From an archaeon GW2011_AR10 (GTDB lineage: Archaea > Iainarchaeota > Iainarchaeia > Iainarchaeales > GW2011-AR10), in assembly GCA_000830275.1 (NCBI GenBank), contig CP010424.1:660001-692000 (forward strand): 32,000 nucleotides of DNA, in the 5' to 3' direction. This document shows positions 1,934 through 26,600 of this stretch, piece by piece. Position 1 is the first letter of the stretch. Each line of letters starts with the position of its first letter. Under the pieces are notes generated by a model. It was not told the DNA's origin and searched no databases. It saw only the letters and a list, made by a program, of their open reading frames with translations. The position numbers and the translations under genes were made by a program.

Positions 1934-1937
1934 AAAA

Positions 1938-3524: not shown

Positions 3525-3737
3525 ATGGCTAATGGGAAAACCGTTGTTTTGAAGAAGGAAGCTATTAATGAATTAAGGAAAGAAGCTAACCGGCTTAGAA
3601 GTGATTTTAAGGGGTATCTTGAGGATTTGGAGCTGATGAGCAATCCTGCTTTTTGGAAATCTGTTGAGGAGTTGCAGTCCGGAAAATTGAAGAAATATGA
3701 TTCGCTGGAAGAATTTTTCAAAGAGCTTGAAAGCTGA
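3525..3737 (+). CDS. putative type II antitoxin (RelB-like by position)
   Basis: 70 aa charged helical ORF. Its stop overlaps the start of the RelE-like gene by 1 nt (TGATG). SD-like AGGTGTTGGAGA lies just upstream of the ATG. The family call rests on size, position and coupling only. Confidence 0.6.
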   Translation: MANGKTVVLKKEAINELRKEANRLRSDFKGYLEDLELMSNPAFWKSVEELQSGKLKKYDSLEEFFKELES

Positions 3738-3985
3738 TGCCTTATAGTTATTCTTTTTCCAGCGAATTCAAAAAGTCATTCAAGAAACTTGACCGCAGAA
3801 TGAAAATTCTTGTTAAAAAGAAGATTGCCAAGATTGCAGAGAACCCTGAACTTGGAAAACCGTTGCATAAGCCTTTGCAGAACTTCAAAAGTGAAAGAGT
3901 TGAGAAAATGCGGATAGTCTATGCTTTTGACGGCAAATCAATCGAGTTTGCATTGCTTGACGACAGAGGACATGTTTACGGTTAA
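3737..3985 (+). CDS. relE: RelE/ParE-family type II toxin (mRNA interferase)
   Basis: 82 aa. The pattern Y.F..S..F.K.FKKLD......KKI..I..NP..GKPL...L....S.RV...RIVY......I....L..R..VY matches the RelE/StbE (ParE_toxin) family layout. It is translationally coupled to the upstream small ORF. Confidence 0.85.
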   Translation: MPYSYSFSSEFKKSFKKLDRRMKILVKKKIAKIAENPELGKPLHKPLQNFKSERVEKMRIVYAFDGKSIEFALLDDRGHVYG

Positions 3986-4029: not shown

Positions 4030-4362
4030 TCAGCTTTTCAGTTTGTCAATTTTTGCTGCAAGAATGAAATCATTATCGTGAAGCCCCTGAATTTTGTGAG
4101 TGTAGTTTGTTAAGGTAACCTTGTTGTAAGAAATTAGTATGTCTGAATGGTGGCGCTCTAGTTCCATTATGGCTGCAGCCTTATTGACGAAAGCCATTGC
4201 TTCAATGAAATTCTTGAACTTGAACTGCTTGCGGATTTTTTTCGAGTTCGCTGTCAGGCTCCAACCTGAAACCTGCCGCAGAAACTTTTTTGCTTTTTTT
4301 TCTTCCATTGGAGGAATTCCTCCCCTGCAAGGAATGCAGTCCTTTGATTCAAGTTTGCTCAT
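4030..4362 (-). CDS. phhB: pterin-4-alpha-carbinolamine dehydratase (PCD/DCoH family)
   Basis: 110 aa. C.PC.GG N-terminus, then GW...I.KQFKFKNF..A..F.N......E..HHSD....YNKV.L...TH...GL...DF..A..ID. This is collinear with human PCBD1 and bacterial PhhB, including the His-His-[P/S] core. SD-like GGGGGTGG lies 5 nt upstream on the minus strand. Confidence 0.88.
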   Translation of the reverse strand: MSKLESKDCIPCRGGIPPMEEKKAKKFLRQVSGWSLTANSKKIRKQFKFKNFIEAMAFVNKAAAIMELERHHSDILISYNKVTLTNYTHKIQGLHDNDFILAAKIDKLKS

Positions 4363-4533: not shown

Positions 4534-4564
4534 GCGTTGAATGCTTTGCGCGCGAGGCCTTTTC

Positions 4565-7500
4565 ATGGGGATTTCCGAGACATTGAGCGGATTTTACGCC
4601 AAACTGGAGGACAAGTTCTATGGCATTGCGGACTTCTTTGACAGCAAAGGCATTCCGGTTAACAGCGCGATTGACTGGGTTGAGGACAAGGGCATTCCTG
4701 CTTTTCCTCTGACAATTGCGGCAATTGTTGTTGTTGTAGCGCTGCTTTACGGTTTCGTGTTTGCTGCAACACAGCAAGTAACTGTTGTTTTTGACCTGAA
4801 GGACAACAATGGAAACGCGTTAAGCCAGGTTAGGGTTAGCGCGGTTAATTCGGCAGGCAACAATGTTCCCTTAGGCAAAACTTCCTTTAAGGACGGGGAA
4901 GACGTAACACTTGCTGGAGTGCCTGTTGGCGGCACAATAAAGTTTTCCTCTCAAAAGGAAGGTTACATTGATGGAAAGTTTTCACTGCAGGTTTCAGGCA
5001 CTGAAAACCTTGCATTGCTGCGCATGAAAAAGGATGTGCAGACAATCGTGGGGCAAATAAGCCTTGTTGACACTGAAACAGGGGACCCTGTTGGAGAGGC
5101 ACAAGTTATTGCAACCTTAAGCGACAAATCAACTGTTGAATGCAATGCCGGGGAGAGCATTGGGGCTTATGAGTGCGTTGGAGTGCTCGAGGGTGACAGC
5201 GCAAAAGTTGATGTTAGGACAAGCAACTTTGAGGACAGCTCCTTCACTGTTTCTTTCTTCGAGGGAAGCGTCAGCGAGTTTGAACTGCAGCCAAAGGCTT
5301 CCGCTGCAGAAGGAAAAAGCAGCCTAATTATCAGGGTTGTGGATTCTGCAACAGAGCAGAGAGTGCAGGGCGCTACAATCAGAATATTTGACGCTGATGA
5401 TGAGGGCTTAATCAGTGAGGTAACTGACGAGGATGGGGAGTACATTGAAAGGGTTGACAAGGGGTTATCCTTAAGAGTGGTTGTTTCAAGGGACGGTTAC
5501 ATAAAGTATGATTCCGGCGCTGAAGGAATCGAGAGGACAATGCGGGATGACGAGGAGCTGTGGCTTGTCAGCATGGTGGAAGGCGGGGCAACTGTTACTG
5601 TTAGGGTAAGGGATGCTGGCGGAGCGCCACTAACAGGGGTTGTTGTTTCATTGTTCAACAGCGAGGCGGAACTGCTGGATGAAGAGAAAACATTGTTTGC
5701 CGGGGAAGTTGATTTTTCTGACTTGAATGCGGAAGCAACTTATTTTGTTACGGCTTTCCTTGACAGGTATGTTCCTGCAAGAGAAATCGTGAGGCCGCTG
5801 CAAAGCAAGGAACTTGACATAGAGCTGGAGCGATTAACGCAGTCAAATTCCTCCAATCTCAGGGTTTTTGTTGTTGATGAACGTAACAGTGCGGTAAACA
5901 ATGCGTTCCTTAACTTCTTTGAATTAGAGGACGGGAAGAAAACCCCTTCAGGAATACCGCAGCAGAAAAGTGATGTAACTGGAAAAGCAACTGTGCCTGT
6001 GTCAGTAAACATTTCAATGCTTGTTGAAGCGGTTAAGGGAGCGCAGCGCGGCGAAGCCGAGGTTGAAATCAAGCAGCAGGGCCTCAATGAGGCGCTTGTA
6101 ACTGTTCGCAAGGAGCTTGGCCTAGTGACCTTTGCTCTGCTGGATGAAGACAAGGAACCAGTTCAGGGAGGGCATTTAACAATTAAAAGCGGTGCAGGGG
6201 AAGAGCTGTTCAGGGCAACTCTTTCAGGGCAGAATGAAGTAACAGTTGATGTCGGGGAAAACGATTACGTGAAGATTGACTTCCTCGGCACTGACGGCAA
6301 AACACACGCGGAAGAAATTTATGTTAAGGAACAATCAAGGGTTGAAGTAATAATTGGCGGAAAGGGTTCTGCTAGTCTTTCCCCCACGCTGGAGTTTTTG
6401 GGGGTTTTCAGTGCAAGCGGTGCAGAGGTTGAGGGAATAAAGCGCGGGCAAGATTATTTCCTAAAGTTTCAGGTTGTTTTTCCTGAGGGCAAAGGAAATT
6501 ATGGCATGCACGTGAGGGTTGGGGATGACTCGGTTAAGTTTGCTGACTCGCAGGATGTCGGCATAATTGGTTTGAGTGCAACTGGTGCACAGGCTTTTTA
6601 TGGAAGAACTTTCTCTCCTTTCCCGGAACCGGGCTTTGAGGGGGTTGACATGCAGAACGAGGGAAACCCGGGAGGATACAACAAGTTTGTTGAGCTTTCC
6701 TTCACTGAAGGTGGAACAAAAATCGTCAAAGTGAGGGTTAAGGCAAAGGAAACAGCAACTGATTCAAGCTTTGATGTTAAGTTCAGGGCATGGAGTGAAG
6801 CAGGCAGAAGCTTTTATCGCGCACCAGTTGATTCAGTGCTTGAAACAGCAGCGTTTTCAAGCGAAAAAGGAACCTTGTACGCTGAAACATTGAAGGAAAG
6901 CGTGAGGATTTTCCAGACTGATTCGAGCTGCGAAGACGACTTGTGTGCTGGCTTCAAGTTCATCAGGAGCAATGACTCTGAGTTCGCGCCTGAAGACTTC
7001 AAGGCAGTGGTTGGAGAGGTTTACGCGCTTGAAGTGGAGCTTAACCCGAGCAAGGAAATTGACGCAACAATCAGGGCGGTCACTTCGCGAAGCAACCCGA
7101 AAATTTTCTGGCAAGGATATGGAATTGACAACTTCATTGACTTTCCTGACAACAACAAGCAGGAAACCTCCATTGAAGTGAAAGGAATTACTGCAATGCC
7201 GGGGCAGGCAGTCAAGACAAGGCTTTTCTTTAAGACGGTTGAGCTGGAAACCGCTTCAATCACGCTGCAGGTTGTAACAGCAGATGATGTTTTGAACGAG
7301 TCCTTCTTTTTCGATATTTTCCTTGAAAGGGACATGGAGTTCTCAATCCAGCCTGATGAGGTAACTTTGGGAAAGGACTTCAGCATCCTGTTAAAGGAGG
7401 ATACTGGAAAAGGGATTGAGAACGCAACGATTAAGCTGAAGGACAAGGACGGAAAGCACATTGAAACAATTATCGGGGATGGTTCCCTTGGAAAAGGGCT

Positions 7501-10500
7501 TGATGGAAAATACGATGTAAAAAACTCTTTTGATCCTGGAGTGATAAAATACGAAATCGCTGCTGAGGGATTCAAGCCTGTTGAGGGAGAACTTCAGGTG
7601 CTTAAAACCGGGGTGCTGAGGCTGCCGGAGGAAGTGCAGGTAAGCATTCCTGCTGGGCAGGAACAGGCAAGCGTTTCAGTAAACCTCGAAAATATTTCAG
7701 AGGAGTTAGTGCAGGACATACAGTTTGAGGTGAAGAGGCGCGGCAATTTCCCTGTTGGAATGGAGCTGAAGGCAGGCGGGGTTTCATCCATTCAGGCTAA
7801 CTCAACTTACAGGGTGCCGTTTACTGCAGCTTACCATGGAATTGCCGAAAGAGAGCACGGCGAGGTTGATGTTATTGCAAGGGGCAGGGTGCTTGGCAAG
7901 TACTCTGTCAGCGCTGAAACAAGAGTGAAAATTGACTTTAACCCCGAGGTTGACCCGGCAGACATTGAGTTCAGCAAGTCAAAGTTAGTGGCTTACCTTG
8001 CAAGCGGCTACGACAACAGGCAGTTCTATGACAACAGCTATAATCAGCGTTACCCTTCAGGCTATGACAGTTCCCTGTACGGCACTGGTGGCAGCTCTCC
8101 GTATGGCACTTCCCAGTACGGCACTGGTGGCACTTCCCAGTACGGCACTGATTACTCCGGCGCAGGCTACTATGACAGCACTTCATATCCTTACAGTTAC
8201 TCCAACAACGTTTACGCGCAAAGGTACTATCCTTCTTATTTGACTGGCTATGGTTCAACTGATTACTCCAACTATAATGACACTCTCCCATACCGTTACC
8301 TTAATTACTCAAGCGCGCAGCAGGTTGAGTTCACTATCAGGAACAACTCTGACCTTGACTTGGTGCTGGTGCCGGATGTTGTAGCAGAGGACAAAATTGA
8401 TGCTGAGGGAATACAGGTTGATGTGCCGCAGGTTACGCTGAAAAAAAAGGGCACAGCTGTCGGCGGGAGAAGAGAGGACGAGAAAGCAGTGAAGGTTTCC
8501 ATAACAAACAAGCTGCTTAGGAATTATCCAAACAAGCAGTCATTCAAGTTTGACCTTGTGTTCAAATCAGATGCAGTCACTAAGTCCATTCCGCTGGAGA
8601 TTTTCATTTGGAGCCCAAAGTTTGCGCTGGAAATGCAGCGCAATGTTGAGCTGTGGCTTTCACAGGAAACTCCAACGTCGAGGGCAATTGCTCAGGTTCC
8701 ATTGTTTGTGAGGAACGTTGGTTTGGCGCCTGTTGAAAACATTGTGTTCAGGGCTTCGAGCGCGAGCCTTCGCGGCAATGTCAATGTCAGAGTAATTCCT
8801 GCTGTGCCTGTTCCATTCCTTGACAAGGGGCAGGCAATAACTCCGCCGCCAGCGCTTGTGGCTGAAGCAATTAGAACAGAGAAGACAACCCTGCTGGATG
8901 TGAAGCAGATTGACGTGTTTGGAACCATTGACGGAAGGCAGTACGAGTTCGGGCCAATTTTTGTGACAACCCACATTTCTAGGCCGGAGTGCTTGGTTGT
9001 TGTGCCTAACTCGCTTGAATTCCTAAGCGAAAAGGAAACAGGGGCAATAACAAAGGAATTGAAGGTTAAAAACACTTGCGCTGAAGAGGTAAGGGTTAGG
9101 CTCATTGAGCCAAGAGAGTTTGGCTCAAACAGTCTTGACTTGGCGTTTCCTGATGAAGTTGTTCCGCCGGGAAGTGATAGGCCAATTCAAATAATTTTAA
9201 CCAAGAACGAGGCGTGGAATGCGCAAACACAGGTTTTTTTGCGCGGCTTCCTTGTGAGAAGCGGCAGGTTCACTTCCTCTAACCCAATAAACGTTAACCT
9301 CAACATAGGCAAGCAGGGAGTGCAGGACAAAGTAGCTGTTGAAGAAATTTCTGTGCCGGTGTGTGGTGAGGAAGGAAAGGCAGCTGAAGAAAAGCTCGTT
9401 GCGTTTCCGAAGATTGCAACAGGCAATGACTGCAGCAACGCTTACTGTGATGCAAAACAGCTTTCAGAGTTCTTGGCTGAAAAAATCAGAAGCAGAATTG
9501 ATGAAACAAAGAGGCAGGTAACCAACTACAAATCTGACTTGCTGAATGTGCCTACTTGCGAAACGCATTCATCAGGCTACTGTTCTTTTGCTGACTTGGG
9601 GCTTTCAGGGGAGAGCTTCAGCGTTTACTTCCAGAACGACATTCTTTCACCGCAGCTACTGAAGGAAGCCCTAAGCGGGAAAGGCGCGGACCTTGCTTCT
9701 TACAGAACAGACTATGCTTCAGGCTCTGATCCGGGCAGGTTTTTGGGGCAGATTGGAAAACAGGTTTTAATCAACGGAAGGATTGAGGGGTGCGGGCGCT
9801 ATAGAATGTCTGTTAACGGAGCAGTGAAAGTGCAGGGCTCGCAGCTGCAGCCTGACCTAATGGTGATACTAATTGATGTGAACCCGGAGGGAGAAGCACT
9901 GGACAATGCAGAGGGAGCAGCAGGGGGAGCAATGACAGGAAAAGAAGTAACGGAGCAGTGCCTGCCGAAGATACAAAACATTGCGAACTTTTTGCCGCTG
10001 GATGAAGGGTTCACTCCAGCCAACAGAAAGGACACTTTGCTTGGACTGGTTGATGTCGGCGGTGAAACACCTGAGGAAAAGCAAAAGCTTGAGGGTTTGG
10101 GAAAAGAGGTTGCAACTGGAATGTTTGGGAACGAGGCAAGGTTTGTGCAGAACGCAACCACTTCCAACAGATTGAACCTGCAGATTGGCGAAACAACTGG
10201 TTACTTGGTTAAGGTTGACATTGAGAAAACAGGGGAGGGGGCAAAGAAGACAGTGAAAGCATTCATTCAGGATGCTGGAACTAATGCAGAAAAGCAGGGC
10301 AAGGTTGCGAAGGAGGCAGCACAAGCAATAATCGGCTTGAGGAACAACGCGATTGACGGATGCATTTCAGCAAACGATGATTATGCTTTGCTGAAGTCAG
10401 CTGCAGAAGTTGGGGAACTTGAGATAATGGCGTGCAAGGACAGCAAGTTAAGGATTTCAGTTGGAGAGAGCTGCTGTGATATAAGCGTGCTTGGCGACTT

Positions 10501-13069
10501 GCAGCAGGAAGTAGAAGCCGGGGCAAGCATTGACAAGGTAACCGGAATAAACCCGCCGCAGGTAAAGAAAGGCAATGCAGCGGTAACTGAAACAAAGCTT
10601 GATGCAAAAGACGAGAAAACAAACAAGTACAAATCCGAATTGCAGCTTTGCGTTACAGGATTAACTGATTTGCATAATGCTAATGGAAAGAAGGTGAAGC
10701 TTGACGCGCAGTACAAGGTTACGAAAGCAAAGGCTGCAGCAAAAGAGGTTGAATTGCAAGTATGCGGCCTGCACCCAAGCACTCTGCTTGACGAAGTGCA
10801 AAAGCAGCCTGCCGGCACTTATTACTTTAATCCCTCGTGGAAGGGCACCCCTGAAACAATCCAGTTGAAGGAACTCATTGAAGGAGAGGTTGCTGAAGCA
10901 AACCTTGCTGAAGCAGAGAAATCCGTTGCAAGCAACAAACCAGGCGGGCAGACAAAAATTGAGGACGCGAAGAAAACCCAGAGGCTGCGGGGGCTTGGAA
11001 TATATGTTGGAACATGCAGTGCGGTTGCTGCTTTGGCAGGATGGTGGACTGGATTCGGGATATTTTTGAACCCCTTAATTGACTGCATTATTCCTGCTGC
11101 TTGGTCAGGAGCAGACGACATCGGGTTAGGCGGAGTGAAGGAATGGATTTCAGATATTTCAGGAAAGGTGTTTGGTTTCCTTGGCGGAATCACTGACAGC
11201 CTTTTCGGAAAGTTTGATGATGTTACTGAAGCATTGACAGGGCCAACAGACAACATTGAAAACTTTGACGAGTTAAAGAACAGTGCTTTCACGACCGTAA
11301 GCACTTACTCGATTTACCGTGGTATCACAAACCCAAGCGATATCGCAACTGCATCCAATGTTAGGTCAGCTGCAAAAACAGTTTCAGAAAACCTTGCAGA
11401 CCAGATAATGAAAGACAATTTCCCGCATTATCCACTCATTAGGAGCGCGAGGAGCACTGCGCTTTGGAAAAACCTTTCAGACAAGTATTACAACGAAATT
11501 GTTAAGGGGGCTGAATCATCTTACGGAAAATCAACGCTTGATAATGCGGTGAGAAGTGCAACTGGAGCATCACATGCAGCTGTTGCAGCCGACAGTAAAG
11601 TGGTTGAAGAGTTTGTTAAGCTTAAGGGAAACCTGAAGCCTGAAGCACAAAACCTTTTGAAGGGAAATAAGGCAACTGTGCTGAATGAAGCGTTTGATTT
11701 GCAGAAATACACAGGAGCCGCTGAAGGCTCAGGAACAGTTAAGAAGTGGGATATTGGAGTTGATAGAACCACCACTCCTCCTAAATATTCTGAAAAAAGC
11801 TTTAAGAGCACCGCAGCAGGAATTGCTGACCAGCTGACTAATGACACGTGGCCGCAAATCAGGAGTGACATGGCTGAAAAGCTTGGAGCAGAGTTTGTAG
11901 GAGAAAATGAAAAAGAATTGAGGTCACTTTACAGGAGAGGCGTTGGAGCAGCAGTGAGAAACCAGCTCTCAACCCCAGTTGACGCTGGCACAGGAAGGCT
12001 TCTGTCTTTTTCCACTGAGTTCACGCCAGCAAACGCAAGAAGCTCCGTTACCGCTGGAGTTGAAAACATTAACAAGAATTTGGCCGGCAAGGCGCTTGAA
12101 TTCGTGGAAAAGAAGGCCGGCCCGAAAGTGATGCAGGAGCTTGCACAAAAAGCAGATGAAGCAATTACAAGCACTAAAGGCACTTACAGTTTGAAATGGA
12201 CTAATTTCAAGTCATATGCGAAAGGTTTCCTCAAAAATTTCGGCAAAGGAATTGCTGGAGGACTGATAGCGAATGCTGCCGGCTTGGCCGCTTACAAGGC
12301 TTACATGAACAGCGCTGGAAAAGCGGTTGAAGCTGATGAAACTTTCCAAGCGATGCAAGGAAATGCAAGTGATGATGACGGTGATGGCTTAATTGATGAA
12401 GAGGTTGCTGACGGCATTGACAATGATGGAGACGGAAAAGTGGATGAGGATGTAATAGAAATCAAGTCAGACATTACGCTGAAAAAGTACAAGCCGTACA
12501 AGGTAACAATCAGGGAGGAGTTCGGCAGGAAAACTTATACAATTGATGAAGCCGGTGAAGGCGCGGAAATTCCTGCTGACGCAAAGTTCATTGAAAAGTG
12601 CGATGCAACCCTGCAGGAAGATTTCGAGGTTGTTGGGAGCCTGCTGCCACAAGCAAACGAATTCAGTGGACAGGCCCCACAGGTTGCCAGCTACTACAAG
12701 CATTACTCTCCAATTACAAGGCATTTCTCTGATGCGTTTAATGTGCCGGAAGCGCTGCTTGTAACTGTTGCTTCATGGAAGACAGGCATGGGAACTCAAG
12801 GAAGCGTTGAGTGGATTACGAGCTGCAATTACGGCAGCGAGGAAACAAAGTCAGTTGAAAAGAGCTTTGAGTGCGCTGCAAGAGAACTAAGCACTGCACT
12901 GAATTCTTGCAGCGGGGAAGAAAACAGCAAGGAAAAGGTAACTTGCGCTTTGCAGAAATATGATTCCGCAGGGAACAAGAGGCCAAATGAAAAAGCAGCA
13001 AACTTTGATGAACTGTTTGAACAATTCGAGCTGTGGAACAAGAGGAAATTCACAATTGAGGCAAGCTGA
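4565..13069 (+). CDS. giant membrane-anchored surface protein, paralog 1 (2834 aa from ATG 4565; ORF track start 4541)
   Basis: Uninterrupted 8.5 kb ORF. Parts in order: N-terminal conserved motif (aa 1-47), TM helix (nt 4706-4768), tandem CarboxypepD_reg-like repeats (about nt 4770-6360), GMHVRVG (6503-6523), Tyr/Gly/Ser-rich segment (8006-8312), YCDAKQLS (9443-9466), core end YYFNPSW (about 10819), then a unique ~740 aa C-terminal extension. Start 4565 was chosen because MGISETLSGFYAKLEDKFY aligns with the N-termini of the paralogs. Confidence 0.9.
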   Translation: MGISETLSGFYAKLEDKFYGIADFFDSKGIPVNSAIDWVEDKGIPAFPLTIAAIVVVVALLYGFVFAATQQVTVVFDLKDNNGNALSQVRVSAVNSAGNNVPLGKTSFKDGEDVTLAGVPVGGTIKFSSQKEGYIDGKFSLQVSGTENLALLRMKKDVQTIVGQISLVDTETGDPVGEAQVIATLSDKSTVECNAGESIGAYECVGVLEGDSAKVDVRTSNFEDSSFTVSFFEGSVSEFELQPKASAAEGKSSLIIRVVDSATEQRVQGATIRIFDADDEGLISEVTDEDGEYIERVDKGLSLRVVVSRDGYIKYDSGAEGIERTMRDDEELWLVSMVEGGATVTVRVRDAGGAPLTGVVVSLFNSEAELLDEEKTLFAGEVDFSDLNAEATYFVTAFLDRYVPAREIVRPLQSKELDIELERLTQSNSSNLRVFVVDERNSAVNNAFLNFFELEDGKKTPSGIPQQKSDVTGKATVPVSVNISMLVEAVKGAQRGEAEVEIKQQGLNEALVTVRKELGLVTFALLDEDKEPVQGGHLTIKSGAGEELFRATLSGQNEVTVDVGENDYVKIDFLGTDGKTHAEEIYVKEQSRVEVIIGGKGSASLSPTLEFLGVFSASGAEVEGIKRGQDYFLKFQVVFPEGKGNYGMHVRVGDDSVKFADSQDVGIIGLSATGAQAFYGRTFSPFPEPGFEGVDMQNEGNPGGYNKFVELSFTEGGTKIVKVRVKAKETATDSSFDVKFRAWSEAGRSFYRAPVDSVLETAAFSSEKGTLYAETLKESVRIFQTDSSCEDDLCAGFKFIRSNDSEFAPEDFKAVVGEVYALEVELNPSKEIDATIRAVTSRSNPKIFWQGYGIDNFIDFPDNNKQETSIEVKGITAMPGQAVKTRLFFKTVELETASITLQVVTADDVLNESFFFDIFLERDMEFSIQPDEVTLGKDFSILLKEDTGKGIENATIKLKDKDGKHIETIIGDGSLGKGLDGKYDVKNSFDPGVIKYEIAAEGFKPVEGELQVLKTGVLRLPEEVQVSIPAGQEQASVSVNLENISEELVQDIQFEVKRRGNFPVGMELKAGGVSSIQANSTYRVPFTAAYHGIAEREHGEVDVIARGRVLGKYSVSAETRVKIDFNPEVDPADIEFSKSKLVAYLASGYDNRQFYDNSYNQRYPSGYDSSLYGTGGSSPYGTSQYGTGGTSQYGTDYSGAGYYDSTSYPYSYSNNVYAQRYYPSYLTGYGSTDYSNYNDTLPYRYLNYSSAQQVEFTIRNNSDLDLVLVPDVVAEDKIDAEGIQVDVPQVTLKKKGTAVGGRREDEKAVKVSITNKLLRNYPNKQSFKFDLVFKSDAVTKSIPLEIFIWSPKFALEMQRNVELWLSQETPTSRAIAQVPLFVRNVGLAPVENIVFRASSASLRGNVNVRVIPAVPVPFLDKGQAITPPPALVAEAIRTEKTTLLDVKQIDVFGTIDGRQYEFGPIFVTTHISRPECLVVVPNSLEFLSEKETGAITKELKVKNTCAEEVRVRLIEPREFGSNSLDLAFPDEVVPPGSDRPIQIILTKNEAWNAQTQVFLRGFLVRSGRFTSSNPINVNLNIGKQGVQDKVAVEEISVPVCGEEGKAAEEKLVAFPKIATGNDCSNAYCDAKQLSEFLAEKIRSRIDETKRQVTNYKSDLLNVPTCETHSSGYCSFADLGLSGESFSVYFQNDILSPQLLKEALSGKGADLASYRTDYASGSDPGRFLGQIGKQVLINGRIEGCGRYRMSVNGAVKVQGSQLQPDLMVILIDVNPEGEALDNAEGAAGGAMTGKEVTEQCLPKIQNIANFLPLDEGFTPANRKDTLLGLVDVGGETPEEKQKLEGLGKEVATGMFGNEARFVQNATTSNRLNLQIGETTGYLVKVDIEKTGEGAKKTVKAFIQDAGTNAEKQGKVAKEAAQAIIGLRNNAIDGCISANDDYALLKSAAEVGELEIMACKDSKLRISVGESCCDISVLGDLQQEVEAGASIDKVTGINPPQVKKGNAAVTETKLDAKDEKTNKYKSELQLCVTGLTDLHNANGKKVKLDAQYKVTKAKAAAKEVELQVCGLHPSTLLDEVQKQPAGTYYFNPSWKGTPETIQLKELIEGEVAEANLAEAEKSVASNKPGGQTKIEDAKKTQRLRGLGIYVGTCSAVAALAGWWTGFGIFLNPLIDCIIPAAWSGADDIGLGGVKEWISDISGKVFGFLGGITDSLFGKFDDVTEALTGPTDNIENFDELKNSAFTTVSTYSIYRGITNPSDIATASNVRSAAKTVSENLADQIMKDNFPHYPLIRSARSTALWKNLSDKYYNEIVKGAESSYGKSTLDNAVRSATGASHAAVAADSKVVEEFVKLKGNLKPEAQNLLKGNKATVLNEAFDLQKYTGAAEGSGTVKKWDIGVDRTTTPPKYSEKSFKSTAAGIADQLTNDTWPQIRSDMAEKLGAEFVGENEKELRSLYRRGVGAAVRNQLSTPVDAGTGRLLSFSTEFTPANARSSVTAGVENINKNLAGKALEFVEKKAGPKVMQELAQKADEAITSTKGTYSLKWTNFKSYAKGFLKNFGKGIAGGLIANAAGLAAYKAYMNSAGKAVEADETFQAMQGNASDDDGDGLIDEEVADGIDNDGDGKVDEDVIEIKSDITLKKYKPYKVTIREEFGRKTYTIDEAGEGAEIPADAKFIEKCDATLQEDFEVVGSLLPQANEFSGQAPQVASYYKHYSPITRHFSDAFNVPEALLVTVASWKTGMGTQGSVEWITSCNYGSEETKSVEKSFECAARELSTALNSCSGEENSKEKVTCALQKYDSAGNKRPNEKAANFDELFEQFELWNKRKFTIEAS
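8105..8152 (+). repeat. in-frame 24-nt tandem duplication inside the Tyr/Gly/Ser-rich segment of giant 1
   Basis: GGCACTTCCCAGTACGGCACTGGT (8105-8128) versus GGCACTTCCCAGTACGGCACTGAT (8129-8152), 23/24 identical. They encode GTSQYGTG and GTSQYGTD. A related TACGGCACTGGTGGCA is at 8078-8093. Confidence 0.9.
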
Positions 13070-13115: not shown

Positions 13116-14588
13116 ATGACTGGAATAAAGGGGTTCACGCTTTTCACTGCACTTGTTGCATTCATACTGATTGTTTTATCGGTGCTGCTGGTTCAGACAA
13201 TGATTCGCACCGAGAGGAATACAACTGACATCATTTCAGACATTCAGGAGGAACAGGAAATGCAGGCAATAGCTGATTTGGCGAGAGCAGAGGCACTGCA
13301 AACATTCAATTACGGCATCAGGTTTTCGATTGAGGACTGGCTCACAAAAGACGGGGATGGAGACGGCATTCCTGATAATGCTTACCTTTTGACGCCAAGC
13401 GAGTTGGCTGGAACTGATGCAGAGTCATGGGAGAACACAAAGAAAAAGTTCGCTGAATCCAATTTTGGTGTTGGAGGCGAAGGAACCCAGTTTGCCAACA
13501 GGGCAGCAAACCATCTTTCAACGCTGCTTGCAAGCACGCCTGATGTAAGGGGCTTCCAAGTAAATCTTGACAACAACAGCCAGGCGGTGATTGTTAGTGT
13601 GCTGGAACCATTGTTTGAGGACAGCAGTGCAAGGCAGGACTTTTTTGAAGTGATTCGGTGTGATGGCACTTGGGATGGTTGCCCGATAGGAACTTTTTAT
13701 GTTAACCTTGACATTGCAAGACTGACTGATGAGCAGTACGAGAAGCTGCCGCAGATTGTCGTGAAAAAAATCACAACAAAAGGAGAGGTGGAGAGGACTT
13801 TGAGGGAGCCGATTCTTCCAAGGGGAAATTTGCAGATTTATGTGCCGATAAGAATCTTCAAGGCAATTGCTGGGGCAAGAGATGTTGCAAGGACAGGCAG
13901 CGGGTTTTACTCTGGAGCAATTGATGCAACTTTGTTGGAGGTAAAGTTGGGGGTTTGTGGAGAGAACACTTGCGTGCCGGAATACCATTCTGCTTCCGGC
14001 CCTGACATTGAAGGTTTTGCCTGCGTCGGCGACACTTACGCTGACCATCCAAAAATTTCAAGCATTCCAGTTTTGATTGACGGAACATCTTTCAACTATG
14101 ATCCAAACAATGAGGAGGAAATGAGGAGCAGGCTGATTAACGAAGTTGGCAGGCCAAGGCTCCTCAACTTCTTTGCAAATGAGCTGACGCAAAACCTGCC
14201 TAATGACTTGAGTGTCCCGGCGGTTGACTTTCGGCTTGTAACAATTCCTGCGGGAAGCGGCTATGACACAATCCAGAGAACTTCTGTTATTGTTGTAACT
14301 CCTAAGACAAGGCAGGTTGATTTCATTGGTGCGCCATCTGGAGAAGCTGTTTGCGCGAGAATTGACAGGGTTGGCGGCTTCCTTGTGTTTGAGGACACCA
14401 AGCCGGATTACATGGTGAGCGAGTTGCCAAAATATGGTTCTCTTATCCCTACTAACAGGTATGCTGTGAGGCTTTCAACTGACTCTTTTTCTGGAGAAGT
14501 TCCTGCTGTTAAAACCTGTGAAACCATTGCAACCCCAACTGGAATAGACCTGGCAGATTTTACTTACAGATGCGAGTTCAGGGGCTGA
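13116..14588 (+). CDS. large Cys-rich protein with class III (type IV pilin-like) signal peptide
   Basis: 490 aa. N-terminus MTGIKG|FTLFTALVAFILIVLSVLLV: short basic n-region, KG, then a ~20 aa hydrophobic helix with no Glu at +5 (archaeal style). TSP3-like acidic loop DGDGDGIPD at nt 13350-13379. About 11 Cys, which suggests an extracellular disulfide-bonded domain. Confidence 0.8.
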   Translation: MTGIKGFTLFTALVAFILIVLSVLLVQTMIRTERNTTDIISDIQEEQEMQAIADLARAEALQTFNYGIRFSIEDWLTKDGDGDGIPDNAYLLTPSELAGTDAESWENTKKKFAESNFGVGGEGTQFANRAANHLSTLLASTPDVRGFQVNLDNNSQAVIVSVLEPLFEDSSARQDFFEVIRCDGTWDGCPIGTFYVNLDIARLTDEQYEKLPQIVVKKITTKGEVERTLREPILPRGNLQIYVPIRIFKAIAGARDVARTGSGFYSGAIDATLLEVKLGVCGENTCVPEYHSASGPDIEGFACVGDTYADHPKISSIPVLIDGTSFNYDPNNEEEMRSRLINEVGRPRLLNFFANELTQNLPNDLSVPAVDFRLVTIPAGSGYDTIQRTSVIVVTPKTRQVDFIGAPSGEAVCARIDRVGGFLVFEDTKPDYMVSELPKYGSLIPTNRYAVRLSTDSFSGEVPAVKTCETIATPTGIDLADFTYRCEFRG

Positions 14589-14892: not shown

Positions 14893-17800
14893 ATGCCTGA
14901 GGGGAAAAAGGGGCTTTACGCTTCACTTGAGGGAAAGTATTACGATTTGCTTGACTGGCTTGACACGAAGGGAATCCCTGTTTACAGTGTAGTTGACTGG
15001 ATTGAGGACAAGAATATTCCTTCCTTTCCTGTTGCAGTGCTTTTCTCCTTTCTTGTGCTGATTTTGGTTGGCTGGCTTGTTTTGGGCTTGGTTGCGCCGG
15101 GCAAGGCAACGCTTTCTGTTTCGGTTTTTGATGAAAGCCTTTCTCCAGTTAGTAATGTTGAAGTGAGCGCTTCGACTGCTTCTGGGGGAACAATTGGCCC
15201 GGAGCTTACTGATGCAAGCGGTGTTGCAAGCATAACTGTGCCAATGAATGAGGAAATTCTTGTTGAAGCAAAAAAGGAGCCTGATTTCAGGACAAAAACT
15301 GAAACTTTCACTGCAATTAAGCAGGAGGAAAGCCTTGAGTTGGAGTTGCAGCGCACGGTTTCAACTTTGAGGAAAACAATTGAAATTTTGAGGCCTGGAA
15401 CAAACGAGCTTGTGGACGAGCTTGTGGAGCTTGAGCTTCGATGCAGTGAAAAGCCAGAGTTCAGCGAGCGCGTAACAACCACTACAGGCATAATTACTGT
15501 TGAAGTACAGAGCGATTGCGGAACACTTCACGTTACTCCTGCCAATGGGTTCACTGCTTCCGGCACAACAAGTTTTGATGTGAGGGTTGAGGGAACAATT
15601 GAACTGTTTTTGAGGGAAGAGGAAACAGGGAAAGGCACAATAATTGTTTCAGTTACTGACAGCTCTGGAACCCCACTGCAAGGAATTGATGTTTCGGTTG
15701 TAGTGCGGAGTGATGAATCAGAAATTGGCTCGGTTGTTGAAACAAAGCAGACTCTTGCTTCAGGCACTGTTACTTTCCTTGAGGTTCCGGAAGGAACATA
15801 CTCTGTAACGGCTTTTGACAGAACAGGAACGTTCAGCGAATTTGATTCATCAGAAATTGGCTTGGTGCAGGAAGTTGCGGATGGGGCAACCAAAACTTTT
15901 TCAATTGCATTGGAGAAAACAGTAGTGGGCTCAATAAGGGTTTTAGTGAAGGACGCTGTTTCGCTTAAGGCAATTGAGAACGCAACTGTTTCAGTGAGCA
16001 AAGAATCAGTGAATCTCCCTCAAAAGAAAACCGATGCGGAGGGAAGAGCCGAGTTTGGTGTAGGGGAACAGGTAAAGTACACTGTTGTTGTGGACAAGGA
16101 AGGCTACCTCATTGAAGAACTTGAACTGGAGCCTGCCAATGAGTTCAGGGAAGTTCTTTTAAGGGAGGCAACAGCTGAGAACAGCCAGAGCCTTACAGTA
16201 ATAGTGAGAGACGAGGTAGGCGACCCGATTGAAAATGTAAGAATAACTTTGAGGAACGCGGAAACTGATGCGCAGGTTGGAAGGGAGCTTGTTACTGGCA
16301 TTGCAGGAATTGCGTTGTTTGAAAGAGTTGAGGCGGGAACATATTACGTGTTTGCCTTGAAGCCTGGCTTCGGGGAAAAAACAAGCCAGACATTCACTTT
16401 GAACAGGAGGCAGGAAAACAGGGTGGAGCTAACCATTTCAATCGGTTCTGGAGCAGTTGAATTGATGGTGTTTGATGAAGCAAAGCAGCCAATGGCTGGG
16501 ACAAGCGTTAAACTGCTTGACTTTTACTCGAAAGAAGTTTTAAGCGAGGGCATCACAGGCTCTGATGGAATTGCTTCTCTTGCTGCGAGAGCAGACAAAA
16601 CAGTTTATGCGGTGGTAACCTTGAGCGGTTACCTGCCGTACATTACTAGAACTGTTAGGATGGGAAAGGATGTAACGCAGCAACTTGAGGCAGGCATGAG
16701 GAAGGAAATAAGTGCTCTTTCACTTGAACTGGTGAGCCTGCAGCTCGGCGAAGAAACTGTGAGAGACGTTGAGGTGCCAAGCCTTGAGCCGGGGCAAAGG
16801 TATAAGGCAAAGTTTTTGCTGCTGGTGCCTAAGGGCTCTGCTTTGGAGGAGGCTGGAGTGCATTTGAGGGTTGGCGCATCAGAGGAAGGCAAAACAAATG
16901 TGCTGGAGAAAGATGACCTGTATATTCTGGGTGTGAGTTCTGCTTTCAGTGAAATTCTGCGCGGCACTTCTTTCACTCCGCCTATTGGCTATGGCGCTGA
17001 CGCGCAACATTTTACTTCAGCTGAAGCGAAGTGGGTTAATGTTTTCTTTTCACAGCCAGCAAACGGCGTGATTGAAGTTGAAGCAGAAATTCAGGTTAGG
17101 GAAAATGCAAGGCGCGGCTCAGCGCTTGACTTGTGGTATAGGGCTTGGGGGAAGACAGGAAGTTACCTTAGGTTTCCAAGCGATGCAGCTCTTGGAAGCT
17201 CTGAGAACAGTGCATCAAAGCAGGCACTGTATGCTCAGGCCAAGAACAAGAAGTTTTCTGTTGGCCCAACCAACCTTTGCTTGAACGAGTTCTGCTCAAC
17301 TGTTTCAATTGAGGACTTGAGGGAAGAGCTTGAAACAAGCGTTGTGGACGAATATGTTGCGGAAATAGGCAACAATTACAGGTTAAAGTTTTCCATAAAC
17401 AGTGTTTCATCAGAGCTATTCGAGCAAGCAGAGCTACAGGTGGTTGACTCAACAGGCAGCCTTGCATTTGGCAATTACGACATTTCAACTGTTGCCGGGG
17501 AGCGGAGAAGCGGAACTGCAACAGGCTCAGAGTTAAGGGTTGGAATAGGGAGCCTGGCAAAAGATGACTTCTTTAATGGAACGCTTGAGTTCAGTTCAAG
17601 AAAGGAGGGAACAGCCTTAGTGCAATTAAGCGTCATTTCATCCAACCAGCGGGTTTTCGAGAAAGAGGTTAGGATCCTTGTTTTGCCGGCAGAAGAGATG
17701 AGCGTTGACATTTTGCCGAAAATAATTGTGCCATTCATTAACAACAACATTTTGGTGCAGGCTTCAACTGAGGCAGAGGATGGGTTGCTGTTGCCTGTTC

Positions 17801-20800
17801 CAAATGCATCAGTTTCATTGAAGAAAGACGGCGAGGTTGTTGCCTCTGGTTTCACTGATTCAGCCGGAATTTTTCCTTACACGCTGTTGAACCCGAACGC
17901 AGGCATAACTGTTGGGGTTAAGGTTGAGAAGCCTGGCTTCAGGCCGGTTGAAAAAGAAATAATCGTTACTGAGGACATTTTGGTTGCAACTCCTGCAACA
18001 CTGAGGGAAACCCTTAAGGTTGGCTTGGCTCCAAGCAAAGAGCTTGCATTCGGTTTAAGCAATTTAACCCAAGTGCCCCTCACTATTTCCAGTGTTGAGG
18101 AAAGCGCTGACTTCACTAACTTGGTGAAATTTTCATTTGATGAAACCCTTGAGGGAAGAGTAATTGGGGTTAGGGAGGACAGCAACTTAACTGTTAGGGT
18201 GAGCCTTGCTCCTGCTGGAACTATTGTTGATGAGCCTACTGCTGTGAATGGAGGGGTAAGCGTTTACGTAACGAACCCTGCATTTAACCGCACTTGGCGC
18301 AGCGTTATTCCTGCAGAGATAAGGATTGGCTTTGGTGAGGAAATAGATGATGCAGACTGCTTCAGCATTTTTCCCAGCGACTGGAGGATTTTCACTTCAA
18401 CTGAGGCCAAATCGTTGAACGTTGATGTGAAGAACTCATGCAAGATTGGCGGAATTCCTGTTAATCTCAGGAACCTGCAGGCAAGGCTCGTAACCGGCAA
18501 CCAAAACCAGGCTGGAGAATTCAGGGTTAAGAGCAACTTGGAGGGAAGCAACTCAGTAAATTTAACCGGCAGTTTCCAAACCATTTCATTGGTTGTGCCG
18601 GAAAACTCGGAGTCAACTTTGACCTTTGATTTTAACCCTGCAAACGTCAAGAGCGCCAGCTCAGAGCTAAAGGTGGAGGTGAGGGCAATTAACCTTACGG
18701 TTAACGGGGCAGAAGAAGTGAAGCGGGCAATAAATGTGAAGGTTAGTGTGAATGACTTAGTGCAGTGCTTGGATATCCCGCAAAGGGAAGGCCTAAAGCT
18801 TTTGAGCTGCCCGTTCAATGTAGGTTATGGAAATTACCCCAACAATTTCGGCGGGGCATACGGTTATGGTGGGTATCCTTCTGGTTACTCTTACGGCCAA
18901 GGTTATGGTGGAACAAGCTATTATGGGAATCAGGCTTCAGGCTACAACCTTTATGGTGGAACAGGCTATTATGGGAACCAGGCTTCAGGCAACAACCTTT
19001 ATGACCCTTCCAATACAGGCCTTGGTTATGGTAGCGGCTACAACAACTACAATCCTTACGGTTCCGGTTATGGACTTGGCGCTGGTTATGGTGGAACAAC
19101 AAGCTCTTACGGTTACAGTTCCTATGACCCTTACCAAACTCAATCCGGCTACGGAAGCGGATTGCCTCCATACATTGGCACGCTTTCACAGCTTGGCTCA
19201 ACTTACCCTAACCCATCTTATTACTCCCCATCCTATGGCGGCGACTACTATGATAGAAGCGCTAACAACAGGTTTGGGTGCGGCCCTGGATTAGGCCAGG
19301 GAAAAGCAGAAATAGTGCTCAACAATTCCTGCACTGACTCGGTTGAAGTGCAGGCAAGGGATGCTGATGGTTTGATAATTAATGAGTCAACTGTTAAGAT
19401 TGAGAAAGGAAAGCAGGGAAAAATCAGTGTGCAGCCAGCCTACTTTGTTGGAAGGTATCCTGTAGAGATTTCAGCAAGGCTTGAAGGAAGCGAAGAGTCA
19501 TTCACTCCGATTGATTCCGTAAACGTAATCGTGGAGAACCCTTTAACTCTTTCATACAGGGACTGCATCAGTGTTTCTCCTTCAAGGAAGCTTTCATTCA
19601 ACAACTTTTTCGGAAGGCCTGTAACATTGAAAGTTATAAACAGCTGCGTGAATGAAGGAGTGCGGCTGCTTTTCAGCAACGACACGATTTTCTTTTCAAG
19701 TGGCGCATTGAGGCAGCCAACCGACGTTAGGAGCGGATTCCACGAAATGATTGAGAACTGGGCAATACTTGATGAAAAGTTTGAGTCAGCACCAGACGGC
19801 AAAACCACTCAAATACTTGAGTTTGAAATAGTGAAAGCGCTGAAGCAGTACTGCAATCAAGCACCGCCTTTCCCAAAAGAGGGAAGCATTTTCCAGCAGG
19901 TGGGAAACTTGCGCTACTTTGCTTCTTCAGCGTACTACTCTGTTCTGGGAAGAGCAAGTTTGACTGTTAAGTTTTTCACTCCTTTTGGCAGTGAGAGCAG
20001 GATTGCTTTCCCGATGGAAATAGAGGACTTCTGGGAGGGGCTGCCTTACGGTGAAAGGCTCATAAGCTACGGTGACCCGAATTACACTCCAGACCAATGC
20101 GTGAAGCCTGATGCATTGAATTTCAACAACACTTACAATGGGTGCATTCCTATTGGAGAGCTTGACAGGCTTGCAACGCAGCCTTTTTCAACAAAGAATA
20201 ATGGAGGCTTAATGGTTGTTGCAGCGCCACAGCCAGTCAGCCAGACTTGCCAGAGCTTCCAGGCACTAGTGCAGGCCGGCGCGCCAGAGAAAGGCGGCTG
20301 CGGAACTGTTGACACAATTTCAGGGCTTTCAAGCAACAGGATTGAAAAGAACGGAATGGTGTTTTACTTTAATGCCCTCAATAACCGCGACATTGAAATG
20401 CGCGTTGACAAGTCAGCCTGGAACGGAAAAAAGGTTGAGGTTGAGGAAACATTGTTTGTTACAGTTAACAGGGTGGTGCCTTCAAGCAGCAAGCGGGTTG
20501 CTGTGCCGGTCAAGCTGTGCGTTGAAGGCGGAGCTAATATTGGGCAGGAAGAGCAGAGCATAATTGACAAACTTGATGACAAGTACGGCGAAAACAGGTG
20601 GAAGGAACTCGGCGAGTCCGACTTGAATAAGGCAATAAAGGAGGCCAAACCCAATGCAACCAATGAAGAAATCAAAAAAATAACGGATTTGGCTAATGAA
20701 ACCCCAACAACAGGAGAGGCTTTTGTGTGCGAGGCGGGAAAGAGTGGCAGCGCTGTTTACAAGGAGCTTGGCTTTGACAAGCTGTTGTTTGATTGGCGCT

Positions 20801-23656: not shown

Positions 23657-26600
23657 ATGGGTGTCCTAGATTCATTGAAAAACATTTATTTTGGCCTCGA
23701 GGAAAAGTACTATTCTCTGCTGGACAAAATCGATGAAAGGATCCCAATTTACAAGATAATCGACCCAATTGACAAGATTGTGCCGAGTTTTGCACTGGTT
23801 TTAATCATCGGTTTCTTGCTCCTTGTTTTGGCACTATGGTGGCTTGCAGGAATACTGCTGCCGCCGACAACCTCAACCCTGACAATTGTTGTGGTGGAAG
23901 AGGATAAAACTCCAATAGAAAATGCTGCCGTAACTTTTTCGGTTGGCGGTGAGGAAGAAAGCAGGGAGCGCACAAACGAAAACGGTGAAGCAAAGCTTGA
24001 GGGCATTGAAAAGGGAACAGAGGTGTTCGTTGAAGCCGAGAAAGAAGGCTATCAGACAAGGACAAGGAGCGTGTTCGTTTCAGAGGTTCCAAGCCAGGTT
24101 GAAGAAATCGTTTTGGAGCTGGAGGAAGCTGCATTTGAAACAAAAACAATCAGGCTTGTTGATTCTCTTGGGCAAGGCGTTCCGGCTGAGTTCACGCTTA
24201 CTTTCAGCTGCAGTGACCCTTTTGCAACTCCGCCTTCACCGGTAAACCTGCTTAGAAGCGATTTTGGGGTTGCAAGGGTTCAGGTGCCAAGCAACTGCGG
24301 AACACTGCGCGTTTCAGTAATTGATGATGCAGGCTATGAAAACATAACAAGCATTGAGGTCATTGGGAATGACTTCAGGATTGAGTTAAGTGAAGCAGTA
24401 AAGCCTGAAGGCACAATCGCGGTAAACCTGCTGGATGAAGACGGAAATCCAATTGAGGACTCAGTTGAAGTGCAGTTGTACCGCTACGATGACCTGGTTC
24501 AGAACCCGGAAATAGGGCCAATTGATTTTGGTTACAGTTCCGGCGGGCAAGCAACATTTGTTGCAACTGTGGGACAGTACGTGGTGAAGACGTTTGACTC
24601 TTCCGGAGTTTATGGGGATGAAACTTCCGCCAGGATAACGCTTTCAGCTGATGAAACCAAGACAGTTAACATCACTTTAACTGCGAATGTCATTGGGAGC
24701 ATTAAGATTCAGGTAATTGATTCTGCTTCAAGGCAGCCGGTTGACAATGCAAAGGTAACATTAAAGTATCAGAGCGATGAAAGGCAGGTGGCGCAGCTCA
24801 CAACTGACTCGGATGATGACGCAATAGTTGAGTTCTCCATTTCCAGGGACGTGGAATACAGGGTTTTGGTTGAAGCAGAAGCCTACCAGCTTGGAAAAAG
24901 GGAGAGCCTTGAAATAAGCAGTGCTGTTGTAGTGGTTGAGCTCAACAAGTGCACTCCAACAACTTGCGGAAAGCTTTTAGTGAAGGTGCTAGACCAAGAC
25001 GGGGAACCAGTGGAAAATGCTGCTGTTTCATTGTACAATGCTTCAACCAATTACCTGGCTGGCTACAGCAACAAGGTGTCTGATCTCAATGGAGTTGCAG
25101 AGTTTACTGGAGTCAGCTCCGGAAACTACTTTGCGTTTGCGTTCAAGGAAACAATTTCAGGGAGAAGCGACACAACATATTTCAGCAGTACAAGCAATGA
25201 CGATGAAGACGTTGACTTGACTGTTTCAATGGAGATTCCAAACGGGATTGTGAGGGCGCTTATTGTTGACAAGGAAGGAAGAGGAATTGCTTTTCCAATT
25301 GTTACTGTGTTTGATGCGCGCACAAACGAGGTCATTGGCTCAAGGCAGGGGGAAGCGGATGGCACCTTCGAGCTTGAAACAAAGGCTGACAAAAGGGTTT
25401 ACCTGCGCGTTAGGCAGAAGGACTCAAAGCCAAGGATGGCAGACTACTTCACTGTAGCGAGGCCTGTTGTGCCGTCAACCATTCAGGAGTTCACAATAGT
25501 AATGGAGCCGGAAATAATTGACAAGGACATCGAGGCAGAGTTTTTGGGTTTGTTCCAAGCAGGGGAAAGGGCAAAGACTCTTTCAAAAGGAGAACAGTAC
25601 ACGGCAAGATTCAGGTTGCGCGTGCCAGAGGAAAAGGATTACTCTGAAACAGGAATGCACATCAGGGTTGGAAAAGAACTCATAATGGAAAAAGACCCCA
25701 TTGTGTTGAAGGAAATAAACGCTCCAGCAGCATCAATCATCAAGGCAACAAAGTTTGACCCTGACTCAGGATTAAGCGAACAGCAATATGCTTTGACGAA
25801 TGATGACGCAAAATGGTCCAACATTGTTTGGAGCAATGAGCCGGCTGCAGGAATATATGAGGTTGAATCGGTTGTGGAAATAAAGGAAACCGCCTCAATT
25901 CGCGATGAGCTGGAAGTGCATTGGCGGGGCTGGGCTGAAAACGGAATCAGGGAAAGAAATCCTGAGGATGACTCTGTTTCAATTGAGCTTTACTCTAATA
26001 CCCACACGCAGGTGTTTGAGGTTGGCGTAACCACTTTGTGCAGTGAGGACTTCTGTTTCAGCGCAAGGATAAGGGACCAGGAAGCAGGCCTAACCGAATC
26101 TGTTTCTGATGCGTACACTGCAAGGATTGGGAACACTTACGAATTTAGGTTCATTATTACAAACAACAACCCTTCAAGGATTCACGACAACGCGGATCTT
26201 AGAATCAACAACGTTGACCAGGCAGTCAGGTTTTTGGAGTACAGCATGGTGAACGCGCAAACAGGAGAACTGCAAGGCGTAGTCAATGGTTCAGAATTTC
26301 CAAGGCTGAACGTTGGCAATTTGAGCCCAAACCAGGACATTGTTCTGACAACAGAGTTCGTAACATTGAAGCCAATCACAGGCATCATAAGCATCAGGCT
26401 TGTATCTGATGAGGCAATTGTTTTCGAGAAAAACCTTACAATCCAGATTTCTGCGCCGAAGGAAATGACTGTAACTGTTCTACCGCAGCGCTATGCTTCC
26501 GGCATAGAAACAGACATTAATGTGCTGGTCAAGGACAAGGAAACAAGGCTTGAGCTGGAGGAAGCTGTTGTAAGGCTCAAAGACAGAAGGGATAACACCA

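Follow-up and report, generated by a model that had tools for sequence, protein, structure and literature searches.

Some phage tape-measure and ejection proteins carry muralytic domains at the C-terminus, T5 Pb2 being one example. Among archaea, the SPEARE giant proteins of Nanohaloarchaeota reportedly combine protease, adhesion, and endonuclease domains and are said to have been proposed to mediate host contact. Large GH23 lytic murein transglycosylases have also been found in metagenome-assembled genomes (MAGs) of Woesearchaeota/DPANN archaea, where they were interpreted as weapons directed at bacterial walls (Vigneron et al., 2022, PMC9723730; cited in PMC12352652). Here, a 32,000-nucleotide stretch of the genome of the archaeon GW2011_AR10 (Iainarchaeota; GenBank assembly GCA_000830275.1, contig CP010424.1, positions 660,001 to 692,000; hereafter the window) is examined. 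The window carries four tandem genes for giant proteins, all on the + strand: giant 1 (4565..13069), giant 2 (14893..22902), giant 3 (23657..30991), and giant 4, which starts near 31019 and continues beyond the window end at 32000. Giant 1 closes with a C-terminal extension of 742 aa (10841..13066, + strand) that is a conserved module of the giant-1 orthogroup and that ends in a tail predicted to be a divergent relative of lytic transglycosylases. A literature search found no description of the Iainarchaeota giant array or of its C-terminal module, and the module is undescribed. The module is a concrete candidate for part of the contact apparatus by which DPANN archaea would attach to other cells and breach the envelopes of those cells.

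An extension confined to giant 1 and its orthologs

The core common to giants 1 to 4 ends, in giant 1, with the motif VCGLHPS…GTYYFNPSW (10760..10840, + strand). A preliminary description of this DNA, made from the sequence alone, had proposed that giant 1 continues for about 740 aa beyond this shared core and that no other member of the array does so, and both statements hold: 742 codons follow the motif. From the end of the pattern (V or I, Cys, a stretch of variable length, three aromatic residues, and Asn) to the C-terminus there are 745 residues in giant 1 and 9, 22, and 31 in giants 2, 3, and 4, respectively, and a profile of the extension compared with all six-frame open reading frames (ORFs) of the window and of loci L001-L003 matched only giant 1 and a giant-1 ortholog. 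The motif distance and the profile matches, each peculiar to giant 1, therefore indicate that the extension is real and unique within the array. At the junction, '…YYAT..W' followed directly by 'KG.P..I' is kept in giant-1 orthologs. Because giants 3 and 4 continue for 22-31 residues beyond the motif, and '…VLETIQ…' of giant 3 is similar to '…TPETIQ…' of giant 1, the true boundary may lie about 10-30 residues past 10840. Comparison of the extension with Pfam, PHROGs, NCBIfam, and PDB sequences returned nothing above threshold.

A whole-protein search recovered giants of 2,700-2,900 aa that cover 80-100% of giant 1 and that come from MAGs of Candidatus Iainarchaeum/Diapherotrites. BLAST of the extension against these giants gave full-length matches with the C-terminal position unchanged, and the extension is present at that position in at least 16 other giants of this size. 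A HMMER search with the extension alone against 1.84 billion representatives matched 93 proteins at E ≤ 1e-3 and 21 at E ≤ 1e-10, including about a dozen further giants matched at residues ~2,000-2,830. Ten orthologs are 38-46% identical to giant 1 in the core and 26-32% identical in the extension; the module has therefore been inherited with its carrier but is evolving faster. It should be noted that the search for loci, made with an alignment of eight tail sequences, yielded three loci through one peptide pattern, so that the taxonomic spread is under-sampled. In one ortholog (locus L009, ~560-585) the extension is broken by a single in-frame stop (…GKKKV*FRQV…), which could be a sequencing error, a pseudogene, or a read-through site.

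The preliminary description proposed, as a hypothesis, that one paralog of the array may deliver a membrane- or wall-active module. On this effector reading, the extension would be a variable add-on, an exchangeable, toxin-like cargo on a carrier, which would hydrolyze a target wall and/or form pores. The faster divergence of the extension relative to the core fits such an effector. The distribution of the module does not: it is carried by orthologs of the giant-1 paralog only, rather than by orthologs of all paralogs, and is conserved there at the same position. Polymorphic toxins exchange modules among near-identical carriers, and here the whole orthogroup has the module, in one place, vertically conserved rather than swapped. 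The GC content shows no shift across the extension, which argues against the effector reading and on the basis of which a recent horizontal insertion is rejected. Nor did the HMMER search find the extension on other carriers, which is a further point against cargo that moves between proteins. Most of the matches that are shorter than a giant have no start Met and look like contig-truncated pieces; of the Met-started ones P0037, P0033, and P0027, the contig check covered the first two. P0037 (841 aa) is preceded by a run of N in its scaffold, and the ORF upstream is 79% identical to the giant P0024. P0033 (169 aa) sits after an in-frame stop within the same reading frame. Both are assembly fragments and are rejected as stand-alone tail genes.

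The tail and the parts that precede it

The last part of the extension is a Cys-containing helical tail (12638..13066, + strand) with five Cys residues after the acidic loops described below. The structure of the 742-residue extension was predicted by AlphaFold (AF2) with a 22-sequence alignment and scored by the predicted local distance difference test (pLDDT) per 10-residue block; in the tail, these blocks reach 81-97, and a single-sequence prediction of the tail gave a pLDDT of 43. A profile built from 21 tails was compared by hhalign with an alignment of five lytic transglycosylase domains of E. coli (Slt70, MltC, EmtA, MltD, and MltF), giving Prob 71% and E 3.6e-5 over 89 columns, with a three-sequence version of that alignment (E 1.7e-3), and with the Pfam-positive SLT domain of the relative P0024 (Prob 78%, E 1.8e-5). 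In addition, hmmsearch of the tail profile against PDB sequences reached MltC at its catalytic helix, in the same register, at E 0.57. All of the alignments share one register, in which motif I of the tail, VPEALLVTVASWKT (12743..12784, + strand), falls on '…LL.AI…ES', 'SFECAAREL' falls on 'ExNI..G..YL', and 'CALQKYD' falls on 'AAYNxG'; the Tyr of this last motif (motif III, AYNxG) is thus present, and it is invariant in eight close tails (Y94). Local Foldseek matches have probabilities of 0.6-0.9 and root-mean-square deviations (rmsd) of 5-9 Å over 130-190 columns, with whole-query E values above 1, and most of the high-probability ones are named SLT, LT_GEWL, GEWL-like, FlgJ muramidase, or MltF, the rest being unnamed. 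Since the profile alignments share their register and the local fold matches agree with them in pointing to a lysozyme-like fold, the tail of giant 1 is, on these comparisons and the AlphaFold model, a divergent lysozyme-like domain of the GH23/SLT type. The wall-hydrolase-like tail of the preliminary description thereby gains a relationship to family-1 lytic transglycosylases, and no confident match to a non-effector structural family emerged for the extension. A tail with a lytic-transglycosylase-type fold is also among the points in favor of the effector reading.

The catalytic site of the tail differs from that of its relatives. In four alignments, the column of the catalytic Glu is occupied by Lys2747 of the ORF (12779..12781), preceded at position -1 by Trp2746, so that the Glu of the 'ES' in motif I is missing from giant 1; most close relatives likewise have Lys ('IWK[ST]'). 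Motif II (GLMQ) is missing as well, a gap of about 20-30 residues lying opposite it in both profile alignments. With Lys2747 at the Glu column and the GLMQ segment gone, the canonical mechanism is not available to the tail, and a hydrolytic effector role is unlikely in giant 1. The motif around the catalytic site is nevertheless strongly conserved ('VPEALLVTVxIWKS…GC…CAA..L…C…C.L..Y…W' among orthologs), which argues for a retained function. Judged from the missing residues, that function is probably binding, and the last domain probably grips rather than cuts a partner wall.

A deeper clade of relatives (P0054, P0024, P0037, P0056, and P0101) has kept Glu at the catalytic column, where its members read 'ITES', 'VFES', 'MFES', or 'LLEQ'. 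The change from 'ES' in this clade to Lys in the clade of giant 1 would represent a transition from catalysis to binding within one family and, thus, a case of pseudoenzyme evolution. Two members of the deeper clade bear additional enzymes. The giant P0024 has a Pfam-significant SLT domain after the tail (E 3.4e-11), and P0037 has a Peptidase_M23 domain (1e-11) together with a Glucosaminidase-like stretch (7.8e-5, under the Pfam cut-off) at its C-terminal end. The two are 79% identical over their aligned core and differ only in the extra terminal enzyme domain, an arrangement that speaks for the effector reading. The appended enzymes also point to a function connected with walls at the level of the family, in keeping with the wall-binding tip proposed below.

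Upstream of the tail, the parts named in the preliminary description were all located at the positions given there. The first is a moderately hydrophobic helix-turn-helix (10991..11110, + strand) that begins GLGIYVGTCS… and has the consensus Y..xC…S…G.G…D…DC..P..W; in the ortholog alignment, two of its Cys residues, C2159 and C2182, are nearly invariant, and its helices are modeled at extension residues 38-70 and 76-89 with a pLDDT of about 50-73. Its best 19-residue Kyte-Doolittle (KD) hydropathy window scores 1.41 in giant 1 and 1.0-2.1 across orthologs. The third part is a Gly-zipper-like, semi-hydrophobic helix, GFLKNFGKGIAGG / GFLKNFGKGIAGGLIANAAGLAAYKAY (12224..12312, + strand), with the family consensus LGKG…GA..NA.G..AY..Y and a best KD window of 1.05 in giant 1 and 0.7-1.4 across orthologs; it matches the N-terminal portion of Pfam TPR_21 weakly (E 0.0056, under the cut-off). 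Both elements had been called hydrophobic; their positions stand, and their hydrophobicity is only moderate when set against the KD of 2.73 of the N-terminal anchor of giant 1.

Between these two elements lies a long alpha-helical region of variable sequence (extension residues 170-445; 11348..12175, + strand), predicted by AlphaFold with most 10-residue blocks at pLDDT 72-93 and a dip near residues 290-320. Its Foldseek matches include transmembrane (TM) domains of ABC transporters, dynamin stalks, ClyA-type pore toxins, and tape-measure proteins, at probabilities of at most 0.2 and rmsd above 25 Å; these are what any long helical query returns and are non-significant. The ClyA-type alpha-pore-forming toxins among these weak matches (E 0.6-2.7, probability ≤ 0.08) would fit the effector reading.

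The tape-measure matches bear on another explanation, namely that the extension is a tape-measure or ejection protein of phage origin that became fused to a cellular giant. Its layout is similar to that of tape-measure proteins, and such proteins do occur among the Foldseek matches to viral models (BFVD). Those matches, however, have probabilities of 0.03-0.10 and rmsd above 24 Å, as is typical of any long helical query, the PHROGs search returned 0 families and Pfam none, and the module sits in a conserved cellular synteny block. Phage structural genes were not found near giant 1, where the neighbors are giant paralogs, pilin-like genes, a ParE toxin, and Pterin_4a. Because PHROGs finds nothing and the fold matches (probability ≤ 0.10) are generic to long helices, tape-measure homology is effectively refuted and a phage origin is regarded as very improbable. 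What survives of the tape-measure likeness noted in the preliminary description is the order of elements, that is, long helices, Gly-rich semi-hydrophobic helices, and a muralytic-type fold.

The Gly-rich helix is followed by two acidic DxDxDG loops (DDDGDGLIDEE…DNDGDGKVDED; 12371..12451, + strand; ORF aa 2611-2632), in which the DxDxDG sequence motif occurs as DDDGDG and DNDGDG. These repeats are found in some orthologs and missing from others; in several, Cys residues border them ('EEICDG.DNDGD..DEDC') in the manner of the acidic double-disulfide repeat, and both of these Cys are Val in giant 1. The loops match the NCBIfam model of that repeat weakly (E 0.012), and many unrelated proteins match the extension solely at this stretch. 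A small beta-hairpin unit, KYKPYKVTI…GRKTYTI (12476..12550, + strand; strands at extension residues 553-560 and 563-570), follows and has a conserved KYxTY. The conserved pieces of the extension are, in order, the 'W-KG-x-P' junction, the Cys…Cys hairpin, the 'LGKG…GA..NA.G..AY' helix, the 'KYxTY' beta-hairpin, and the tail motif.

Genomic context and a proposed role for the module

Giant 1 is encoded in an uninterrupted reading frame (4541..13069) whose probable start is Met9 at 4565; a database protein (P0001) of 2,834 aa with the N-terminus MGISETL is 100% identical. Giants 3 and 4 begin in the same way (MGISETL-type start), giant 4 with MGLKEIYYSLEDKYY, and on longer contigs of the same genome giant 4 reaches 2,249 aa, with genes for five small polytopic membrane proteins after it. 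Common to all four giants are an N-terminal 'LEDKYY…IPVY..ID…IPSF' motif, a single strongly hydrophobic helix thereafter (KD 2.7-2.9), several CarboxypepD_reg/Ig-like domains, a 'YCDA.Q' Cys motif, and a terminal motif that runs from V or I plus Cys to 'aromatic-aromatic-WN'. Giants 1 and 2 are 22% identical across the N-terminal 1,190 residues, the similarity of giants 1 and 3 is confined to the N-terminus, and the four are, by their sequences, very divergent paralogs. In giant 1, the domain order is the N-terminal conserved motif, a TM anchor, Ig-like CarboxypepD_reg domains, a Tyr/Gly/Ser-rich linker, the Cys-containing YCDA region, and the extension, and the anchor is the sole strong TM segment predicted. 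The low-complexity linker lies mid-protein in giant 1 (aa ~1155-1250; 8000-8290) and in giant 2 (aa ~1330-1460; ~18900-19300), and the equivalent site of giant 3 is occupied by Gly-rich hydrophobic segments (aa ~1440-1620, KD 1.73) and a Pro/Gln/Trp-rich stretch.

Forty-six nucleotides after the stop of giant 1 begins a gene (13116..14588, + strand) whose 490-aa product carries a pilin-like class III signal sequence, MTGIKGFTLFTALVAFILIV, belongs to no Pfam family, and matches the ComGF minor pilin weakly (E 5e-4). Homologs that are 35-39% identical lie directly after giant-1 orthologs in loci L002 and L008. The order of a giant-1-type gene, a pilin-like gene, and a giant-2-type gene is seen in the window, in L002, and, by position, in L012, whereas the short scaffold of L008 holds the giant and the pilin-like gene only; in L012, the order is a giant, a 429-aa ORF assigned to the pilin-like slot by its place alone, a giant, and a small protein (170-aa ORF). 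The preliminary description had suggested looking for a small cognate immunity-like gene in related loci. None follows giant 1: the 46-nt gap holds no small ORF, and what follows is the conserved pilin-like gene, a further point against an effector.

Of the effector reading, then, the wall-hydrolase ancestry and the layout are retained, and the variability, the shuffling between carriers (no stand-alone or other-carrier homologs, the two contig-checked candidates being fragments), the pairing with an immunity gene, and the likely catalysis are not. With the catalytic Glu and GLMQ missing in giant 1 and the module conserved within one orthogroup, delivery of a toxic cargo appears quite unlikely.

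In L002 (1-9380, with the ortholog P0003), the array adjoins a T2SSE-family ATPase, which has a 781-aa ORF at its side, and several archaeal type IV pilin-like genes, a context that suggests that the giants are linked to pilus-type machinery. This context also favors a self-directed role, in which the semi-hydrophobic helices would re-enter the archaeon's own membrane or bind its own envelope, the giants and the pilin-like protein would form a surface structure, and the degenerate lysozyme-like domain and the helices would organize that complex with no part in contact with another cell. The strict co-location with the pilin-like gene, the hairpin KD values of 1.5-2.1 in several orthologs, and the presence of the module in one of four paralogs, as expected of a specialized subunit in a complex, are all consistent with this. 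The acidic DxDxDG loops and the Cys-rich tail are, however, typical of extracellular domains, and the Gly-rich helix is, at a KD of 0.7-1.4, too polar to form a stable TM helix. Furthermore, relatives append peptidoglycan hydrolases at the same end, and archaea are not known to make peptidoglycan. A purely self-directed function is deemed unlikely.

The reading preferred here, to which an even chance is given, is that the extension forms a conserved tip, far from the cell, that would touch an envelope and bind wall glycan via its degenerate transglycosylase domain, with moderately hydrophobic Gly-rich helices flanking it. Because the extension is C-terminal in a membrane-anchored giant, it would be the outermost part of the protein: the N-terminal TM helix would hold giant 1 in the archaeon's own membrane, and some 2,000 residues of mostly beta-rich domains would extend the module outward from the cell. 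The degenerate transglycosylase domain would then serve as a putative glycan-binding (lectin-like) head that docks the tip onto a partner wall, which could be bacterial peptidoglycan or a similar polymer. The acidic loops may bind Ca2+ and thereby stiffen the neck, and the Gly-rich helices, whose polarity is too high for constitutive TM segments, may attach to the partner membrane or enter it upon contact. Wall cutting, where needed, could come from other domains or proteins, such as the extra SLT or M23 domains of the sister clade or an Amidase_3 (N-acetylmuramoyl-L-alanine amidase) plus PKD protein of 1,014 aa encoded on the same contig ~6 kb upstream of the window (L001, 1114-4158). If the tail does bind peptidoglycan, bacterial rather than archaeal partners would be indicated.

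Several observations weigh against a distal, wall-binding tip. Foldseek with the whole 742-residue model gave no match with E < 0.01, and no Pfam model reaches its gathering threshold on the tail of giant 1; the tails of single relatives have weak Pfam matches only, to Glucosaminidase (0.0035) and SLT_2 (0.075), and the tail of P0054 itself matches Glucosaminidase weakly. For three members of the deeper clade, the register is ambiguous by one residue at the 'ES' spot. The preference for binding over cutting rests on missing residues only, and catalysis of a non-canonical kind might occur. Were either the hairpin or the Gly-rich helix a genuine TM segment in the archaeon's own membrane, the tail would no longer lie distally.

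A bolder extension of the wall-binding tip can be envisaged, in which giant 1 would act as a contact-dependent harpoon: a stalk of about 2,000 residues would carry a wall-docking pseudo-transglycosylase along with latent membrane-inserting Gly-rich helices, and these helices would open or stabilize a bridge between a DPANN cell and its host, in functional parallel to phage tape-measure and ejection proteins and evolved independently in a cellular lineage. To our knowledge, no host has been named for the Iainarchaeota, and this scenario is considered speculative and rather improbable.

The remaining genes of the region are listed for completeness. The Amidase_3 plus PKD protein mentioned above is a peptidoglycan hydrolase encoded in an archaeon, near the giant array. 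Between giants 2 and 3 lies a gene for a small polytopic membrane protein of ~156-161 aa (22963-23448, + strand) with no family match, and in L012 the 170-aa ORF after the giant-2-type gene occupies the corresponding position. Upstream of the array lie genes for two proteins of 481 and 501 aa (488-3443, + strand), secreted or anchored in the membrane, that have N-terminal hydrophobic signals and no family matches. They are followed by a small two-gene cassette (3525-3985, + strand), the second gene of which (3737..3985) matches ParE toxin (PF05016, 24.1 bits, cut-off 23) and the first of which (70 aa) presumably encodes its antitoxin. Just upstream of giant 1, on the - strand, is a gene for Pterin-4a-carbinolamine dehydratase (4030-4362; PF01329, Pterin_4a, E 7e-30).

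Comparison with described systems

The tail of giant 1 shares with family-1 lytic transglycosylases (SLT, PF01464; GH23; Slt70, MltC, MltD, MltE, and MltF) the alignment of motif I, 'ExNI..G..YL', and 'AAYNxG'. It differs from them in having Lys in place of the catalytic Glu, in the deletion of the GLMQ segment, in four or five additional conserved Cys and the lack of any Pfam model at threshold, and in its position as the last domain of an archaeal surface protein of 2,834 aa. Phage tape-measure and ejection proteins present the same order of elements as the extension (long helices, Gly-rich hydrophobic segments, and a terminal wall-hydrolase-type domain), whereas giant 1 has no sequence or significant fold similarity to them, stands in a cellular context, and has an N-terminal TM anchor. 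With polymorphic toxins of the Rhs, CDI, and MAF types, giant 1 has in common a giant surface carrier with a distinct C-terminal module, and the terminal enzyme does vary in one sister clade; unlike in those toxins, there is no immunity gene, the module is not shared with other carriers, and it is orthologously conserved.

Further parallels are found among other DPANN archaea. Like the SPEARE proteins, giant 1 is a giant multi-domain surface protein of a DPANN archaeon, and the two are set apart, by description only, through their differing domain content. The GH23 proteins of Woesearchaeota (PMC9723730) likewise combine a DPANN origin, GH23-type domains on large proteins, and a proposed role against the walls of other cells; those proteins, however, are annotated as catalytically competent and come from a different phylum, whereas the module of giant 1 is a multi-part C-terminal unit of one paralog in an Iainarchaeota giant array, with a GH23-like domain that is degenerate. 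What giant 1 adds to these systems is a conserved, one-paralog-specific module in which a wall-glycan-type domain and semi-hydrophobic helices are combined at the C-terminal end of a giant surface protein.

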